A DNA stretch of 64,000 nucleotides from an uncultured candidatus Porisulfidus sp. (GCA_965215125.1 OZ244052.1:1056001-1120000), one strand, 5' to 3'. Shown: positions 850-63,405, counted from the stretch's first letter. Notes: generated by a model from the letters alone, not told the origin. Numbers and translations: made by a program.

Positions 850-1027
850 GGGGCTGTTGAAAAAGTATTGGCACTGCATAAATCCAACCGCGTGCGCCGT
901 GAATTTATAATAACCACTGAGCCGTAGATAGTATGGATGACCAGCTTTGCTGAAAGTTGGTTAAACTTTCATTTTAGTTCCCCTCTTAAGAGGGGTTTAA
1001 TTCACCACTAAACAAATGAGGTCACCC

Positions 1028-2176
1028 ATGACTAGTATACTGTATGTTGGCATTGATGTTGATGATAAGAGTTTCACTGCCACAGCCATTTCTAAACACA
1101 ATAATCATCATTCCATTAAAACGCGTCCGGACTTTGCATCACTGCATAAGGCAATCACCAAAGTCGCTTTGCCGAATGAACGAATCAGGGTCTGTTATGA
1201 GGCGAGCTATTTAGGCTTTTCGTTAAAGCGACAATTTGATGCGGTGGGCATTCATTGTGATGTGATTGCGCCGTCGCTAATCCCGGTGCGTCCCTCGGAT
1301 CGTATCAAGACTGATCGTTTAGATAGCGTCAAGCTGACCGAATACTACCGGCAAGGTATGTTGAAAATCGTCCACGATATTGATACTGAGACCGAAAGTC
1401 ACCGACAACTCATTCGTGGACGTCAACAAGTGGTCAACACCTGCAAGATCTATAAACTGCAGATTTTGTCGTCGTGTCGTTATCGCGGGATTAGTTATCG
1501 TACCAGTATGCGGGCTAAGAGCTATTGGACGAAGCAACACATGGCATTCTTAAAGCGGTTGCTAGTCGACGAGAGTTTAGATAAGTATTTCCGCATTGAT
1601 TTAGAGAACAAGTTGTATCTATTGGAGACGCAACAAGGGGTTATCAGACGCTATGAGAACGATATACATCAGTTAGCGGTATCCGAGCCGTATCGTCGGG
1701 CGGTCGGCTATTTATGTTGTATCAGAGGCATTGCCGAGTTGATTGCCATGACGCTGATTGTTGAGATTGGCGACATCGGTCGGTTTGTCAAGGCGCGTCA
1801 TCTGGCCGGTTATGCCGGCTTGAGTATCAGTGAGTATAGTTCCGGTGGCAAGAGTCGCAAAGGGGGTATTACCGGGATGGGTAACAAATACATCCGCACG
1901 GTGTGCGTGGAAGCCTGCCAGTTGGCGGGTAGACGCTATAGCGTGAATAAGGCATTGCGTGCCCGACGCACCGACCAAGACCTAGTGGCTATAGAGATAG
2001 GCGACCGTTGCATGAAGCGTTTGTATAAGAAGTATCAGACGATGTATCATGCCAACAAACCATTCAACAAGATTAAGGTGGCGTGTGCCAGAGAGCTACT
2101 CGGTTTTGTGTGGGAAGCCTTGCGTGCTGCCCAGGCCGCTGAGAACGCATTGCACGCCGCACCGGTGGTTGAGTAA
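1028..2176 (+). CDS. IS110-family DEDD transposase/recombinase
   Basis: GIDV, CYEA and KTDRLD acidic motifs, C-terminal GL..EYSSG serine motif; start taken as MTSILYVGIDV by comparison with copy 2. Confidence 0.93.
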   Translation: MTSILYVGIDVDDKSFTATAISKHNNHHSIKTRPDFASLHKAITKVALPNERIRVCYEASYLGFSLKRQFDAVGIHCDVIAPSLIPVRPSDRIKTDRLDSVKLTEYYRQGMLKIVHDIDTETESHRQLIRGRQQVVNTCKIYKLQILSSCRYRGISYRTSMRAKSYWTKQHMAFLKRLLVDESLDKYFRIDLENKLYLLETQQGVIRRYENDIHQLAVSEPYRRAVGYLCCIRGIAELIAMTLIVEIGDIGRFVKARHLAGYAGLSISEYSSGGKSRKGGITGMGNKYIRTVCVEACQLAGRRYSVNKALRARRTDQDLVAIEIGDRCMKRLYKKYQTMYHANKPFNKIKVACARELLGFVWEALRAAQAAENALHAAPVVE

Positions 2177-2664
2177 GTTCGCTAAGCAAGAGGTTGCCAG
2201 ATAGAGTTTTGAGAGACCGAGGGAGTTGAAGCTAAAGTCAATGACAAGTTCCGAACTTAGATGCCGTCCTAGAGTATCTGCCCATAGAAAACTGCCAGGC
2301 GTGATGCGTGGCAGGGCAACTGACCGTAGATTAAGGGGCACAGTTCATCCAATTAACTTATCATGTGGTAATGCGAAAGCAAAGTACACGAATATGAGGT
2401 TGATAATACCGAACGACTCATTAGTTGAGTACTTTAGCGGCGCTGCGCTCGGTCTTTCTTCGGCACAGCATGATGCCGTTAACAAGGAGATAAAGCAGGT
2501 GCACGAAAGTCGCCACGACAAGTGGCGCATACACATACCTGATGCATGCTTTAAGAGTGGTGGCGCATTGCTATCGCTCGCTCCTTGTTGGCATCATCTG
2601 TGCCGTCATTTAACCCTTGAGTTCTGGTGACTCTTGGGAATGTAGACTTCGGTAAAAATTTAAT
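2177..2664 (+). ncRNA. Putative bridge RNA / seekRNA region of the IS110-family element
   Basis: Long conserved 3' region (nearly identical at ~62800-63290) with hairpins and short matches to target (TCTGCCC 2277-2283, CCGTAG 2324-2329) and donor (ATATGAG 2392-2398); boundaries are not determinable from sequence. Confidence 0.6.
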
Positions 2665-2670
2665 TTGACA
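2665..2670 (+). promoter_or_regulatory. -35 element of the IS circle-junction promoter
   Basis: TTGACA near the right end; circularisation places it 18 bp from GATAGT (copy 1) or GATAAT (copy 2) formed with the left end. Confidence 0.6.
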
Positions 2671-2921
2671 AGCTGGTCATCCATATGAGGGGCAGACCTG
2701 TGTGTCTGCCCTTAAGTGCCGTTCTGCACAGCCGTAACCGCTTGCGCCGTATGGTTTTGGTTTCCATAAATCGGGTGAATGAATGTATAAATCGTGCCAA
2801 CCAGCGCGTTACGGGCGGACATGCAAGTCCGCCCCTACCACTCTATGGAATACTTTTTCAACAGCCCCATCGTATCTGCACTATTTTATACATTCATCCA
2901 TTTGATCTATAGCACCCATAC

Positions 2922-3030: not shown

Positions 3031-3137
3031 TGCGATTACCGTAGGGGTTGCGGTCAGTTTAGCTAGCTATACCATTTTTTAGATTACTATTGTTATACTA
3101 CTACGATTATTTAATCCCAATATGTGGAGAGCTAAAA

Positions 3138-4673
3138 ATGATAAAGAAAATAACAATACTTAAAGTAATGGTAATTGCCATGATTTGGGGGGGATTTGTT
3201 GCTAAAACAGTATCAAGCAATCAAGAGATCACCCATGAGGATGGTGCAGATGTGGTGAGAGACTACCAGCAGGCGGCTGCACAAGGAGATGCAACGGCTC
3301 AATACAAACTTGGGGCGATGTATTACAAAGACGAGGGTGTGCCAATAGACTATGCAGAAGCAGCTAAGTGGTTTTTAAAAGCTGCCGAGCAAGGAAATGC
3401 AGATGCTCAATATAGCCTTGAGTGGATGTATGACAATGGCGAGGGTGGGTCAAAAGAAGATTACATGAAAGCATGGGAGTTGCTCTTTGAGTGGTTTGAA
3501 AAAGCAGCCGAGCAAGGAGATGTGTCTGCTCAATATGAACTTGGGTGGATGTATTACAACGGCGAAGGTGTACCAATAGACTATGCAGAAGCAGCTAAGT
3601 GGTTTTTAAAAGCTGCCGAGCAAGGAAATGCAGATGCTCAATATAACCTTGGAGTGATGTATTACAATGGCGAGGGTATATCAAAAAACTATGCAAGAGC
3701 AATTGAATGGTATGAAAAAGCTGCCGAGCAAGGAAATGCAGATGCTCAATATAACCTTGGAGTGATGTATTACAATGGCGAGGGTATATCAAAAAACTAT
3801 GCAAGAGCAATTGAATGGTATGAAAAAGCAGCCGAGCAAGGACTTGCAGAAGCTCAACACATGCTGGGGGTGATGTATTACAAGGGCGAGGGGGCATCAA
3901 AAGACTATACAAAAGCGTTTGAATGGATTGAAAAAGCAGCCGAGCAAGGACATGCAGATGCCCAATACGGCCTTGGCTGGATGTATTACAAAGACGAAGG
4001 GGTGTCAAACAATTATACAAAAGCGGCTGAATGGTTCGAAAAAGCAGCTGCACAAGGACATGCAGATGCTCAATATAACCTTGGAATGATGTATTACGAT
4101 GGCAAGGGTATGTCAAAAAACTATACAAAGACAATTAAATGGTATCAAAAAGCAGCCGAGCAAGGACATGCAGATGCCCAATATAACCTTGGGCTGATGT
4201 ATTATTTTGGTAGAGGAATACCAAAAGACTATACAAAGGCGGTTGAATGGTTTGAAAAGGCTGCGGCACAGGGAGATACAGATGCTCAGTCTTCGATCAT
4301 TGCCTTTCTTAAAATCAGACATTGGCCAGTCTCATTATCGCAAGCAATAGCTATTGTACTAGTTCAGATCTCATTTTTTGGTTTTATTATTGGACGCATA
4401 ATTAGGCACCTTAAAAATAATAAAGATGAACCTTACAGTCGCTCTGTCTCTTTTTTTATTGCTATGCCGGTTGGCTTTTTGTTTTGGATTTTAGTATTCA
4501 TGTTATTTAATGGGGCACATCCCGCTTATCTTTTTTCTACAGTTGGATTATGGTTTGCTTTAAGGGAAAAGATAATTCGGATTAAAACAAAATACTTGCT
4601 GCTGATATTATTTGTACCAACAATCTTATTTATGAAATGGTACATAGATTTCTTTTCCTTTTATCATTTGTAA
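3138..4673 (+). CDS. Sel1-repeat (SLR) protein with N-terminal signal/TM segment and C-terminal multi-TM region
   Basis: About nine 36-aa AQYNLG.MYY.GEG..K.Y.KA.EW..KAAEQG repeats; start MIKKITILK matches the paralog at 7464. Confidence 0.9.
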   Translation: MIKKITILKVMVIAMIWGGFVAKTVSSNQEITHEDGADVVRDYQQAAAQGDATAQYKLGAMYYKDEGVPIDYAEAAKWFLKAAEQGNADAQYSLEWMYDNGEGGSKEDYMKAWELLFEWFEKAAEQGDVSAQYELGWMYYNGEGVPIDYAEAAKWFLKAAEQGNADAQYNLGVMYYNGEGISKNYARAIEWYEKAAEQGNADAQYNLGVMYYNGEGISKNYARAIEWYEKAAEQGLAEAQHMLGVMYYKGEGASKDYTKAFEWIEKAAEQGHADAQYGLGWMYYKDEGVSNNYTKAAEWFEKAAAQGHADAQYNLGMMYYDGKGMSKNYTKTIKWYQKAAEQGHADAQYNLGLMYYFGRGIPKDYTKAVEWFEKAAAQGDTDAQSSIIAFLKIRHWPVSLSQAIAIVLVQISFFGFIIGRIIRHLKNNKDEPYSRSVSFFIAMPVGFLFWILVFMLFNGAHPAYLFSTVGLWFALREKIIRIKTKYLLLILFVPTILFMKWYIDFFSFYHL

Positions 4674-35068: not shown

Positions 35069-35353
35069 GGAGCTGTTGAAAAAGTATCCACGAACCGTAG
35101 GGACGGTACATTCCCCTCCTTCGGAGGGGTGGCAGGCGCAGCCTGACGGGGTGGTTGTGTCGTATCTGCAAGATTTATACATTCATTCACCCGATTTATG
35201 GAAACCAAAACCATAAGGCGCAAGCGGTTGGTGTCGTGCAGAACGGTACTTAAGGGCAGACACACAGGTCTGCCCCTACGGCTTGGTGGTTATTATAAAT
35301 TCACGGCGCAAGCGGTTACGGTTGCAAGCTGACGATACTTTTTCAACAGCCCC
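35069..35353. mobile_element. Intact 285-bp REP-bearing MITE containing an empty IS110 target site
   Basis: TIRs GGAGCTGTTGAAAAAGTATC / GATACTTTTTCAACAGCCCC; direct repeat ACTTCT at 35063-35068 and 35354-35359; contains the reverse complement of GCCGTAGGGGCAGACCTGTGTGTCTGCCC. Confidence 0.85.
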
Positions 35354-58598: not shown

Positions 58599-58698
58599 AT
58601 AATATGGATGACCAGCTTTGCTGAAAGGTGGTTAAACTTTCATTTTAGTTCCCCTCTTAAGAGGGGTTTAATCCACTACTAAACAAAGGAGGTCATCC

Positions 58699-59591
58699 AT
58701 GACTAGTATACTGTATGTTGGCATTGATGTTGATGATAAGAGTTTCACTGCCACAGCCATTTCTAAACACAATAATTATCATTCCATTAAAACGCGTCCG
58801 GACTTTGCATCACTGCATAAGGCAATCACCAAAGTCGCTTTGCCGTATAAACAGATTAGGGTCTGTTATGAAGCAAGCTATTTAGGCTTTTCGTTAAAGC
58901 GACAATTTGATGCGGTGGGCATTCACTGCGATGTGATTGCGCCGTCGCTGATCCCGGTGCGTCCCTCGGATCGCATCAAGACTGATCGTTTAGATAGCGT
59001 TAAGCTGGCTGAATACTACCGACAAGGTATGTTGAAAATCGTCCACGATATTGATACTGAGAGCGAAGGTCACCGACAACTCATTCGTGGACGCCAACAA
59101 GTGGTCAACACCTGCAAGATCTATAAACTGCAGATTTTGTCGTCGTGCCGTTATCGCGGGATTAGTTATCGCACCAGTATGCAGGCCAAGAGCTATTGGA
59201 CGAAGCAACACATAGCATTCTTAAAGCGGTTGCTAGGCGACGACAGTTTAGATAAGTATTTCCGCCTCGATTTAGAGAACAAGTTATATCTATTGGAGAC
59301 GCAACAAGGGGTTATCAGACGCCATGAGAACGATATACATCAGTTAGCGATATCCGAGCCGTATCGTCGGGCGGTCGGCTATTTATGTTGTATCAGAGGC
59401 ATTGCCGAGTTGATTGCGATGACGCTGATTGTTGAGATTGGCGACATCGGTCGGTTTGTCAAGGTGCGTCATCTGGCCGGTTATGCCGGCTTGAGTATCA
59501 GTGAGTATAGTTCCGGTGGCAAGAGTCGCAAAGGGGGTATTACCGGGATGGGCAACAAATGCATCCGCACGGCGTGCGTGGAAGCCTGCCA
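58699..59591 (+). pseudogene. IS110 transposase, 5' part (3' part at 62539..62799)
   Basis: Near-identical to 1028..2176; broken at ...CVEAC by IS1380. Confidence 0.9.
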
Positions 59592-60903
59592 CCCTAATTC
59601 CGCAATAGACCACCTGCAAAAGTCCGTAATCTCTTATGTTGCAACACTCTCATGCATATTCCCAATTCACCCATTAGGTGAAACATAATTATTACTAATT
59701 TTTTACATAAAACTCTGTACAACGCCTTATTTTTTTGTTACTATTTACCAATTAATAACTTCGGAGGTATTATGTCAAAACAAAAAAATCAGCACAATCA
59801 ATCATCGTATACGCTAGCTACCACCCACCAGAAATTGACCTCTCGTTGTGGTTTGTTGGCATTGATTAAAGTGCTCAAAGCACTACAACTTAAGCCACAA
59901 GCAGACACTGTGTTTGCGGCACCGGGTAGCAATCGTGGCTACCGCAATGGCGACATTCTAACGAGCTTCATCTTGATGCTCAACGAGGGTGCGAGATGCC
60001 TTGAGGATGTCTGCCATTTACACACCGAAAGGGTGTTGCTTAAGCTGGGAGGTATTAACAAGATACCGGGAGCAGACACTTTGGCGAGGTGGTTGAAACG
60101 CCATGGTCAAGCCGGTGCCGGTTTAGTTCACCAGCTCAATCGCACGGTGATTGCCAAGACCCTGAAGTTGTGGAAAGTAAAGCATGTGACTTTGGATATT
60201 GATGCGACTACTATTTTGACCGAGAAAGTCGGTGCTAAATGGACGCGTTTTAAGGAGCGTGGTTTCATGCTAATGGTCGGCACGCTAGCTGAAGTGGGTC
60301 AAGTCATCGCCGTTGAGTTGCGCCACGGCAATGTCTCCCCGAACTTTGATAATATCGGTTTCATCAAGACCTGCCAAGCACAGTTGCCGAGTGGCGTAAT
60401 ACTCAAGCGGGTGCGTATCGACTCGGCAGGGTATCAACAAGCAATCATTGAATATCTAGTAGCTCAAGGAATAGAGTTTGTTATTCGTGCGCCGATGTAC
60501 CCGTCAATAGCGCAAGCGATTGCTGGTCTGTCGGGAAGCAGACTGGCGACCATTGCGATTAAGCGACGGCAGTTTATCACCCCACGACTATGTGGCTCGC
60601 TGCACTTATCAGATGTATCGCAGCAACCTCGTATTTACGCTAGTCATTCAACGCCGCCTCAAGAGCGAAGCCGCCCGACAGTCTAACCAACCGGAGTTGT
60701 CGGGACTGTCTGAACAGCTGCGCTATCAACCCGACAAGTATGACTATCGTGTGATTGCGACTAACATCAACGGGCTAGACGATGCACAGATTGTACATGA
60801 GTATAATCAACGCGGTGAGCATTCCGAAAACCGCATTAAAGAACTCAAATCGGATTTTGTTGCCGGTCGTTTGCCGTGTAGTGATTTTGCTGCCAATGCT
60901 CTG

Positions 60904-62035
60904 TGTACAATGCCAGATACATATTGGACTCTTTAGAACCTAATCTTTCCACTAGGAAAAGTACTTTTCCTAGTGGAAAGATACCTCTTAAATCAAAGTA
61001 GCCGACATGCAAAACCAGCACATCGGCTACCGCATTACAGGTTTTTATAAAATAGCCTCTTTTTCCAACAAAACGGAGGCTATGATGGCAACAGATGCCA
61101 AACAAAAACTTAATGCACTAGAATTTTGGAACAAACACGGCTTAAACGCAACCCAAGACTTTGTCGGGGTGAGCCGTTCCACCCTATACCGCTGGAAAAA
61201 GTGCTTTGACGAGGGCGGTGTATCCGCTTTGCGAGACGCAAGTAAAGCACCTCGGCAGCGTCGTCGCCGTAATTGGTCTACTCACATCAGCGATGAGATT
61301 AGGCGACTGCGACACAGCTATCCGAATATGGGTGCGCCGAAGATTTACTACTTCTTAAAGCCGTGGTGTGATGCACGGGAACTGCAGTGTCCGAAGCCTC
61401 GCACCATTGCTCGGTTGATTGCCGATGCATCGGACAACATGCGTTGTTCGCCCTCTAAGAAAACACACAAACGCAAGGTTTCTCAACCACGCAACCGTCT
61501 CGGCAAAGATGCCAAAGCGCAATTTCCCGGACACTGCGTGGCTATGGATACCATCCATTATTTCGTTGATCGGACACGCTATTATCTGTTCACTGCGATT
61601 GACCACTACAGCCGTTTCGCCGTTGCCGTCGCCTGCCGACGTGCCCACAGTAAAAATGCTGCGACATTCGCAAGATTGGTGGACACGGTATTCCCCGGCA
61701 ACCTCTCTCAAGTACTGACCGACAACGGCAGCGAGTTTGCCGGCGACTTCGAGGCTTATCTACAACAACACAACATTAAACACTGTTATACTTATCCTCG
61801 TTGCCCGAAAATGAATGCCGTAGACGAGAGATTTAACCGCACCATTCAGGAGGAGTTTGTAACACATCATGAGGATATTTTAGTGACCGATTTAGCACAA
61901 TTTAACGATGTATTATTTGAATATCTCGGGCGGTATAACTTCAGGAGACCGCACCAAAGTCTAGCCTATAAAACACCGGCACAACAGCTCGCTTCCTTTT
62001 GCCCCCATTTGTCCAATATGTCATGGCATCGTACA
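60904..62035 (+). mobile_element. IS481-family insertion sequence
   Basis: TGT...ACA ends with IR TGTAC.ATGCCA.A.ACATATTGGAC; CTCTG direct repeat at 60899-60903 and 62036-62040. Confidence 0.9.
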
Positions 62036-62062
62036 CTCTGTATGTTTGTGTGTGTGCTTTAG
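61007..62062 (+). CDS. IS481-family integrase-core transposase (stop codon lies outside the element)
   Basis: HTH VSRSTLYRW, MDT, TDNGSEF, ERFNRTIQEE, RPHQSL. Confidence 0.88.
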   Translation: MQNQHIGYRITGFYKIASFSNKTEAMMATDAKQKLNALEFWNKHGLNATQDFVGVSRSTLYRWKKCFDEGGVSALRDASKAPRQRRRRNWSTHISDEIRRLRHSYPNMGAPKIYYFLKPWCDARELQCPKPRTIARLIADASDNMRCSPSKKTHKRKVSQPRNRLGKDAKAQFPGHCVAMDTIHYFVDRTRYYLFTAIDHYSRFAVAVACRRAHSKNAATFARLVDTVFPGNLSQVLTDNGSEFAGDFEAYLQQHNIKHCYTYPRCPKMNAVDERFNRTIQEEFVTHHEDILVTDLAQFNDVLFEYLGRYNFRRPHQSLAYKTPAQQLASFCPHLSNMSWHRTLCMFVCVL

Positions 62063-63405
62063 CCTACAATGTGTTCGCACTGATGCGTGCCGGCTTAGCT
62101 AAACAGTTTCGTTCCTCTAGAGCCCCGACGCTCAGGGTCCGCCTGTTTGGTTTAGCGGCGAAGATTGTACGACAGGGTCGGCAATGGAAGCTCAAACTAC
62201 ACGAAGTGCATCGTAGTTTATTGAGTGGAGTTTTCTCAGACCTTGATGAGACTATCGGCAAGCTATTGCCGGATATGCGATACCCCTTGCTACATTAACT
62301 AGCCACCTTATCTCTTCATTACTCATAAGGCATCAATCAAAGTAGATGCCATGCCCCAGCATACCCTAATACTAGAGATTAGAGTACTTTGATGCTTCAT
62401 TTAGCTCTCAATAGGAGTTTATCTCCCGTCACCGAGCAATGATGTGGCATTCAGTTTCGGGTTCAGGCGATTGCCCTGATAATTTAGCAGTAAATTATCC
62501 ATCACATGCAATTTTCATGCTCTATTGAGAAATTAGGGTGCCAGTTGGCGGGTAGACGCTATAGCGTGAATAAGGCATTGCGTGCCCGACGCACCGACCA
62601 AGACCTAGTGGCTATAGAGATAGGCGACCGTTGCATGAAGCGTTTGTATAAGAAGTATCAGGCGATGTATCATGCCAACAAACCATTCAACAAGACTAAG
62701 GTGGCGTGTGCCAGAGAGCTACTTGGTTTTGTGTGGGAAGCCTTGCGTGTTGCCCAGGCCGCTGAAAACGCATTGCACGCCGCACCGGTGGTTGAGTAAG
62801 CTCGTTAAGCAAGAGGCTGCCAGATAGAGTTCTGAGAGACCGAGGGAGTTGAAGCTAAAGTCAATGACAAGTTCCGAACTTAGATGCCGTCCTAGAGTAT
62901 CTGCCCATAGAAAACTGCCAGGCGTGATGCGTGGCAAGGCAACTGACCGTAGATTAAGGGGCACAGTTCATCCAATTAACTTATCATGTGGTAATGCGAA
63001 AGCAAAGTACACGAATATGAGGTTGATAATACCGAACGACTCATTAGTTGAGTACTTTAGCGGTGCTTCGCTCTGTCTCTCTTCGGCACAGCATGATGCC
63101 GTTAACAAGGAGATAAAGCAGGTGCACGAAAGCCGCCACGACAAGTGGCGCATACATATACATGATGCATGCTTTAAGAGGGGTGGCGCATTGCTATCGC
63201 TCGCTCCTTGTTGGCATCATCTGTGCCGTCATTTAGCCCTTGAGTTCTGGTGACTCCTGGGAATGTAGTCTTCGGTAAAAATTTAATCTTGACAAGCTGG
63301 TCATCCATATGAGGGCATACGAGTCCGCCCTGCAAGGAGGGGAATAGTCAGGACAAGTTTATGTGCTATAATTTTTCCCTTTATTCCCCAAGCAAGTAAT
63401 TAATA

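Follow-up and report, generated by a model that had tools for sequence, protein, structure and literature searches.

The 1762-bp insertion sequence at positions 928-2689 (plus strand) of the analyzed DNA, a 64,000-nucleotide stretch (hereafter, the window) from an uncultured candidatus Porisulfidus sp. (GCA_965215125.1 OZ244052.1:1056001-1120000), encodes a DEDD recombinase which, judging from the sequence, very probably works with a bridge/seekRNA that is encoded downstream and whose guides set both the target and the donor. The anatomy and the insertion sites of the element are established here, and three guide stretches of the predicted RNA each covary with their DNA partners. The DEDD protein, the subterminal repeats, the downstream non-coding region and the order of the guides, i.e. 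most of the features tested, place the element in the IS1111 type of the IS110 family. Since targeting guided by RNA was described for IS110/IS1111 elements in 2024, the element is an addition to a known kind; that it is a new example of this published mechanism, not a new mechanism, is well supported. Thus, when an earlier note on this DNA proposed a 'new programmable recombinase orthologue', the new orthologue stands, whereas the kind itself has been known since 2024.

At the left junction, GCCGT (921-925) is followed by AG (926-927) and by the start of the element, ATAGTATGG, at 928; at the right junction, CATATG extends to 2687 and is followed by AG (2688-2689) and by the flank GGGCAGACC from 2690. 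The AG at 926-927, common to both junctions and to the uninterrupted site described below, is the left copy of the crossover dinucleotide, and AG occupies the left-core position in nearly all lineages of the subfamily. A perfect 14-bp subterminal inverted repeat, TGGATGACCAGCTT, is located at 934-947 and 2670-2683, that is, 6 and 4 nt inside the ends; such repeats are 9-16 bp long in most relatives and 7-17 bp long in the IS1111 group, which the 14-bp repeat fits. The non-coding ends are unequal, 100 nt on the left (928-1027) and 513 nt on the right (2177-2689), and a longer non-coding region 3' of the transposase gene is likewise characteristic of the IS1111 group. Besides the repeat, the left end holds a terminator-like hairpin (980-995) upstream of the transposase gene, with a stem that is kept in the relative from the sister genome G004 and a loop that differs. 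The right end proper (2666-2689, plus strand) comprises a -35-like TTGACA (2666-2671), the repeat, the terminal TATG and the AG core.

The DEDD transposase/recombinase gene (1028-2176, plus strand) encodes 382 amino acids from the ATG at 1028; the frame is open from an ATG at 1016 (386 aa), but the start at 1028 is favoured on the basis of homologues starting with MTSIL and of a GAGG 7 nt upstream of 1028. The protein matches PF01548 (E 3e-7) and PF02371 (E 7e-17) in Pfam as well as the NCBIfam model NF033542, 'IS110 family RNA-guided transposase', with 176.9 bits against a cut-off of 140, the match covering positions 1-342 of the 343 in the profile. Among 27 aligned sequences, D14, E62, D100, D103 and S275/S276-G277 (386-aa numbering) show little or no variation; by analogy with IS621, these are presumably the catalytic residues. 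The closest solved structure is that of the IS621 transposase (8wt6), which is matched weakly, in the C-terminal domain (phmmer E 7.9e-5). There are 1353 relatives of the transposase in the database at E <= 1e-20, and the nearest large group of them is 41-49% identical and 367-386 aa long. A tblastn search of plasmids for a close named IS yielded none above 35% identity; the best plasmid-borne relatives (<=35% identical) carry the generic family name alone. At 382 aa, the transposase exceeds the range of 330-350 aa given for IS1111 transposases in PMC11187229.

The host genome, which is complete (2.22 Mb, 46% G+C), contains five copies of the element. The window copy described above (c1) is intact and is flanked by CCGT-AG on the left and AG-GGGCAGACC on the right. 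In the second copy (c2; 58599-63313, plus strand), a nested 2.9-kb insertion interrupts the element at position ~1000; the insert is a DDE_Tnp_1_4 IS, into which an rve-type IS has in turn been inserted. This second copy occupies the off-consensus site CCCT-AG / AG-GGCATA, which had already been noted as the poorer fit and is so. The other three copies lie elsewhere in the genome: c3 is intact and 97% identical (TTGT-AG on the left, AG-GGGCAGATT on the right); c4 is cut off within the right non-coding end (CGGT-AG on the left, the right side being lost); and c5 is split at element position ~1000 (CCGT-AG on the left, AG-GGGCAGACC on the right). The right arm GGGCAGA is thus found in three of the four copies that retain the right end, and the left arm ends in GT-AG in four of the five copies and reads CCGT-AG in two.

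An uninterrupted target site, CCGT-AG-GGGCAGA, is present on the minus strand at 35267-35282, the single occurrence of GCCGTAGGGGCAGACC in the window; like the junctions, it had been reported in the earlier note, and all the coordinates proved correct. The exact uninterrupted GCCGTAGGGGCAGACC fixes the crossover to the AG dinucleotide. The flanks of this site are paralogous to those of c1 for more than 100 bp on either side, so that it represents an empty site in a paralogue rather than the allele that preceded the insertion. The site is located at the 5' foot of a REP-like hairpin that consists of GGGCAGAC, six bases and GTCTGCCC. In the genome, GTAGGGGCAGA occurs 23 times, the empty site being one of the 23, against ~0.8 expected from composition, and CCGTAGGGGCAGA occurs 5 times (~0.04 expected). 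The target of the element is a REP-like hairpin repeated through the genome, in agreement with the REP target proposed previously, and such hairpins thus provide landing pads in a small, repeat-rich genome.

The predicted bridge/seekRNA spans positions 2260-2425 (plus strand) and comprises a target-binding loop followed by a donor-binding multiloop. The right target guide, TCTGCCC (2277-2283), is complementary to the right target arm GGGCAGA; the left target guide, CCGT with the core AG (2324-2329), repeats the top-strand sequence of the left target arm; and the left donor guide, ATATG with the core AG (2392-2398), is identical to the right end of the element (2683-2689). These three motifs, the CTGCCA/TGGCAG hairpin (2292-2314) that separates the first two, and TTGACA at the right end had all been read from the sequence before, and the positions stated then for the three guide motifs agree with those given here. 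When the 2177-2664 region was subjected to 20,000 mononucleotide shuffles, 252 of the shuffled sequences contained TCTGCCC, 1925 contained CCGTAG and 862 contained ATATGAG; both target motifs, in the right order and within 60 nt, appeared in 2 of the 20,000, and all three motifs together in none. Alignment, pairing and mutual-information scans yielded no convincing right donor guide to match the left end: the candidate TTATC (2358-2362) overlaps an RNA helix with covariation of its own, and 'NCTT' upstream of the GCG hairpin, the apparent complement of AAGN in the left end, was rejected since its variable base covaries with the 3' strand AGGN of the RNA itself (UA 22, AU 17) and thus belongs to an RNA helix.

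The contrast between the host genome and the same-genus sister genome G004 (uncultured Candidatus Porisulfidus sp.) amounts to a natural 'before and after' of retargeting. The sister genome contains six copies of a related element that are 99-100% identical to one another; compared to c1, the protein is 74% identical, and the end-to-end alignment shows ~76% nucleotide identity. At the guide positions, G004 has TCCGCCC in place of TCTGCCC and CTTTAG in place of CCGTAG, the stretch being otherwise conserved. The left sites are ACTTT-AG in five of the six copies and GCGTT-AG in the sixth, and the right sites are AG-GGCGGA(T/C) in all six, so that changes at three bases of the RNA are accompanied by three matching changes in the sites. 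If the guide bases of G004 were swapped into the host element, specificity would be expected to move to CTTTAGGGCGGA. A deleted remnant in the genome G003 has the guides TTCGCCC and CCGTAG and the flanks CCCT-AG-GGGCTTA; the insertion sites of this remnant and of c2 fit the guides poorly.

To extend the comparison to the subfamily, an alignment query was used, a single-protein query having recovered no relatives; it returned 80 loci from public genomes, mostly MAGs of Bdellovibrionota and Gammaproteobacteria. In total, 82 loci were scanned, namely, 74 that are not from G004 and eight copies of the host or G004 element; the conserved donor-guide motif was present in 74 rows, which represent 56 distinct RNAs, of which 53 were aligned. 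The ends of the elements were set from the subterminal repeats alone, the right core being the two bases that follow (CCAT/CTAT)A-N-(G/A) and the left core the two bases at positions seven to six before ATGGATGAC or ATAGACG(C/G)C.

Tested in fixed register over 42 lineages, the left guide is identical to the flank at positions -4 to -1 in 0.76/0.76/0.93/0.98 of the lineages, compared to 0.35/0.30/0.39/0.46 for non-self pairs. Bases beyond the four before AG show no match signal with the left flank in the same 42 lineages; the signal being confined to these four, the left guide consists of 4 + 2 bases, exactly CCGTAG. For the right guide, also in fixed register, 4.55 of 8 positions are complementary to the flank compared to 2.46 for non-self pairs (49 lineages). 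Neither score was reached in 10,000 permutations (0/10,000 for each), although these tests overstate independence, given that the lineages are related and many share targets. The right guide of c1 pairs at 7/8 positions at offset +1 and at 2/8 at offset 0, that is, one base farther from the alignment anchor than the guides of G004 and most relatives. For the donor guide ATA(T/C)GAG, 49 of 51 lineages have the same variable base in the RNA and in the right end (31 T/T and 18 C/C); in the remaining two, the RNA has ATATGAG and the right end ATAGGAG, so that T stands against G twice but never against C. A free-sliding test, in which the best match between guide and flank was sought, gave significant but noisy results owing to the high maximum of the null, and the fixed-register tests were used instead.

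Covariation of the guide positions with the targets in homologues had been suggested as a check in the earlier note, and these positions do covary, both in G004 and across the 42-51 lineages. An unbiased mutual-information scan, in which every flank or end position was compared with every column of the RNA, leads to the same positions: the top signals are LT-2/2326, LT-1/2327, RE-2/2395, LT-3/2325, LT-4/2324 and RT+1/2282, that is, 2324-2327, 2395 and 2282, all within the guides assigned in that note. RT+1 is complementary to 2282 in 0.80 of the lineages, and RE-2 is identical to 2395 in 0.96; the top signals also include clade markers that are neither identical nor complementary. The contrast between the host genome and G004 is independent of the permutation tests across the subfamily.

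The guides are embedded in an RNA scaffold that is conserved in the 53 aligned lineages. RNAalifold predicted 4 pairs only from the raw 53-row alignment and 24 pairs in six helices from a cleaned alignment, from which the rows of the window, L038, L065 and L112 and gappy columns were dropped. In the predicted first unit, a two-part stem closes an internal loop with a small distal stem, the right target guide being on the 5' side of the loop and the left target guide on the 3' side; in the second unit, a stem surrounds a multiloop, which contains a conserved GCGU/ACGC hairpin and, on its 3' side, the donor guide. In the full alignment, the 24 consensus pairs are paired in 88.9% of cases, compared to 83.5% in shuffles (0/500) and ~40% when slid; the covariation score of the scaffold is 0.190, compared to 0.111 in shuffles (0/500), and 12 pairs change on both sides.

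The RNA of c1 departs from this consensus at two places. The distal hairpin of the target loop, CTGCCA (2292-2297) with TGGCAG (2309-2314), which is found in both the MFE and the centroid folds, is enlarged in c1 where most relatives have a 3-bp UAG/CUG stem, and the GCG hairpin is replaced by a longer one (about 2365-2388). Folded alone, the c1 RNA is not significantly structured (z -1.34), and in the MFE fold some of the right target guide is taken up by pairing with the scaffold. Among the copies in the host genome, the RNA region is 98.6-99.5% identical, compared to 95.4-96.8% for the next 220 nt. When positions 850-2800 were compared with Rfam, E values up to 1 being allowed, the best E was 0.21 and all matches were far below the gathering scores, and no stand-alone copies of the RNA were found in the host genome. 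A possible internal promoter of the RNA, TTGAGA-18-TAAAGT (2209-2238), is one weak match and was not adopted, given that its -35 hexamer is not kept in G004.

Taken together with published relatives, these observations suggest a mechanism in which the DEDD recombinase would bind and act with a bridge/seekRNA made from ~2260-2425. The two target guides of the first internal loop would jointly specify CCGT-AG-GGGCAGA, the 5' foot of the REP-like hairpin, so that those of c1 would direct recombination into CCGTAGGGGCAGA, and the RNA would hold donor and target together while the recombinase swaps strands within AG. By analogy with the same relatives, the element presumably moves through a circle, which would join TTGACA of the right end to a -10-like hexamer of the left end and might drive expression. 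The predicted circle junction of c1 consists of TTGACA, 18 nt and GATAGT, with GATAAT in copy 2 and in G004, and 36 of 41 lineages have a TTGnn hexamer 22-23 nt ahead of the core; junction promoters have been described for the family (PMC11187229).

Two other accounts of the targeting have to be weighed. Conceivably, the recombinase reads the REP-like hairpin by protein-DNA contacts alone, and the matches in the RNA are due to chance or are leftovers of the target: a structured hairpin could be read by a protein, and each match is only 6-7 nt long, arising singly in 1.3-9.6% of shuffles. However, the three motifs were never produced together by shuffling, and the same RNA positions shift with the flanks in G004 and across the 42-51 lineages, where the targets are unrelated and many are not hairpins, which makes this account very improbable. 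The guide stretches could also act as DNA, with single-stranded element DNA pairing with the target as in the guide sequences of IS200/IS605, and covariation of sequence alone cannot separate a DNA guide from an RNA guide. Such a role likewise has little probability, considering that the helices of the scaffold around the guides are kept, with compensatory changes, on one strand, and that RNA co-purification and RNA reprogramming have been demonstrated for the family to which the protein belongs (PMC11187229; PMC11208160).

Guidance by the downstream RNA, the reading that we prefer, is compatible with a third possibility, namely, that the guides are correctly assigned but the element in the host genome is a decaying relic that no longer moves. 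The copies in this genome differ by 3-4% (96-97% identity, compared to 99-100% among the six copies in G004), and three of the five are broken, two being split by another IS and one lacking the RNA and the right end; hence, present activity is doubtful. Yet copies 1 and 3 have kept full-length frames, both ends and the RNA, and conservation is higher in the RNA region than around it, so that decay is a substantial possibility to which we nonetheless give somewhat less than even weight.

Among the known systems, the element most closely resembles ISPa11, ISEc11 and ISKpn4, for which seekRNAs have been shown experimentally (Siddiquee et al. 2024, PMC11187229). As described in that source, these elements share with it the DEDD transposase, the subterminal repeats, the long downstream non-coding region and the order of the guides, the match complementary to the top strand lying 5' of the bottom-strand match in IS1111 seekRNAs; ISPa11 also targets REP hairpins. 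By the same description, the element differs from them in the length of the protein (382 aa, not 330-350) and in its 513-nt right end with an extra ~200-nt hairpin. Compared to IS621, as presented by Durrant et al. 2024 (PMC11208160), the general plan is the same: there is a target loop and a donor loop, each guide includes the 2-nt core, and pairing takes place between the left guides and the bottom strand and between the right guides and the top strand. In contrast to IS621, the RNA is encoded in the right rather than the left end, the guides of the target loop come in the reverse order, the donor guide is in a multiloop with no right donor guide found, the core is AG, and the proteins are only distantly related. 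According to PMC11208160, 93% of IS1111 elements have a bridge RNA predicted in their right end, and many IS1111 bridge RNAs have their donor-binding bases in a multiloop. ISPpu9/Ssr9 of Pseudomonas putida (PMC12288879) is similarly an IS110-family element that has inserted into REP sequences and has a gene for a small RNA 3' of its transposase gene, but the P. putida host also has stand-alone copies of the RNA, and none were found in the genome searched here.

The analysis contributes one more recombinase/RNA pair, from a lineage of uncultured symbionts, and defines a subfamily of ~370-aa proteins from Bdellovibrionota, Gammaproteobacteria and other MAGs, in which the RNA scaffold is conserved, the AG core is invariant and the guides are readable. 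This subfamily provides dozens of ready guide/target pairs for surveys of programmable recombinases.

Between the RNA and the right end, the element carries a lineage-specific, very stable hairpin of ~200 nt (2451-2646, plus strand; MFE -89.9 kcal/mol, z -4.49, 0/200 shuffles), with 3 compensatory pairs among 7 sequences. Accordingly, 299 nt separate the donor guide from the right end in c1 and 327 nt in G004, compared to 80-91 nt in most relatives. The hairpin was found in 4 of the 21 genomes searched and, being confined there to copies of the element, it was rejected as an independent mobile repeat. Within the RNA, CTCAT (2417-2421, plus strand) is complementary to the donor guide and is a possible masking strand. 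We regard it as rather unlikely that the RNA module is more than a standard bridge RNA, with the hairpin as a functional add-on and CTCAT masking the donor guide. If so, the hairpin could, for instance, serve the transcript as a domain for processing, stability or regulation, or act on the donor end as a DNA structure, and CTCAT would keep the donor guide covered until it is opened by the recombinase or by the donor, making donor binding a switch. In relatives, the pattern is CTC(A/G)T, and its variable base matches the T/C of the guide in 18 of 29 ATGGAT-type rows; the pattern is absent from ATAGAC-type rows.

A relative of the main element about 40% identical to it, found in a Muiribacteriota MAG (L118:1338-1560), lies at a GT-AG-GGGCAGA hairpin, and its RNA carries CTGCCCCT and TTTGTAG. 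It provides an independent instance of GGGCAGA serving as the right-arm target, as in the main element. Among other subfamily relatives in public genomes, several loci (L067, L068, L070, L100, L115, L096 and L097, the first three of these all coming from one Pseudohongiella MAG) have AG at the left junction and AA at the right, so that the two core copies are unlike within a single insertion.

Downstream of the guide RNA and before the right end of the main element, an imperfect and very stable hairpin of approximately 200 nt spans positions 2451-2646 (folding energy −89.9 kcal/mol, z = −4.49). Across the 21 genomes searched, this hairpin was restricted to copies of the main element in four genomes of the genus, and it was absent from typical subfamily members. 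A second, GC-rich hairpin (CCCCTC-TTAA-GAGGGG, 980-995) separates the left end from the start of the tnp gene and is followed by T-rich sequence; in the 74%-identical relative from a sister genome (G004), the stem is retained and the loop differs. This hairpin may block read-through coming from outside the element.

Both split copies of the main element, copies 2 and 5, are interrupted at the same point, TGCCA in tnp, which is duplicated at either side of the insert (59592-62538 in copy 2 and G000:C1:931981-933789, in the same genome, in copy 5). The inserted IS has ends CCCTAATT... and its orientation in copy 2 is opposite to that in copy 5. Within copy 2, this DDE_Tnp_1_4 IS has in turn been broken into two pieces (59772-60686 and 61999-62298) by an rve-type IS (61007-62062), which amounts to three-level nesting. 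Copy 4 is truncated at its 3' side (G000:C1:1428679), just ahead of the right target guide, and the sequence at the break starts GATGCCTTATTAAAAGTCAAG. Because the same sequence also adjoins a GTAGGGGCAGA site at G000:C1:1998230, its occurrence suggests another mobile element, one that would land in or beside repeats of the GTAGGGGCAGA kind.

Read by eye, a 527-aa frame (3090-4673) is nearly all Sel1-like repeats (AEQG-ADAQY-LG-MYY-GEG), with a hydrophobic tail after them.
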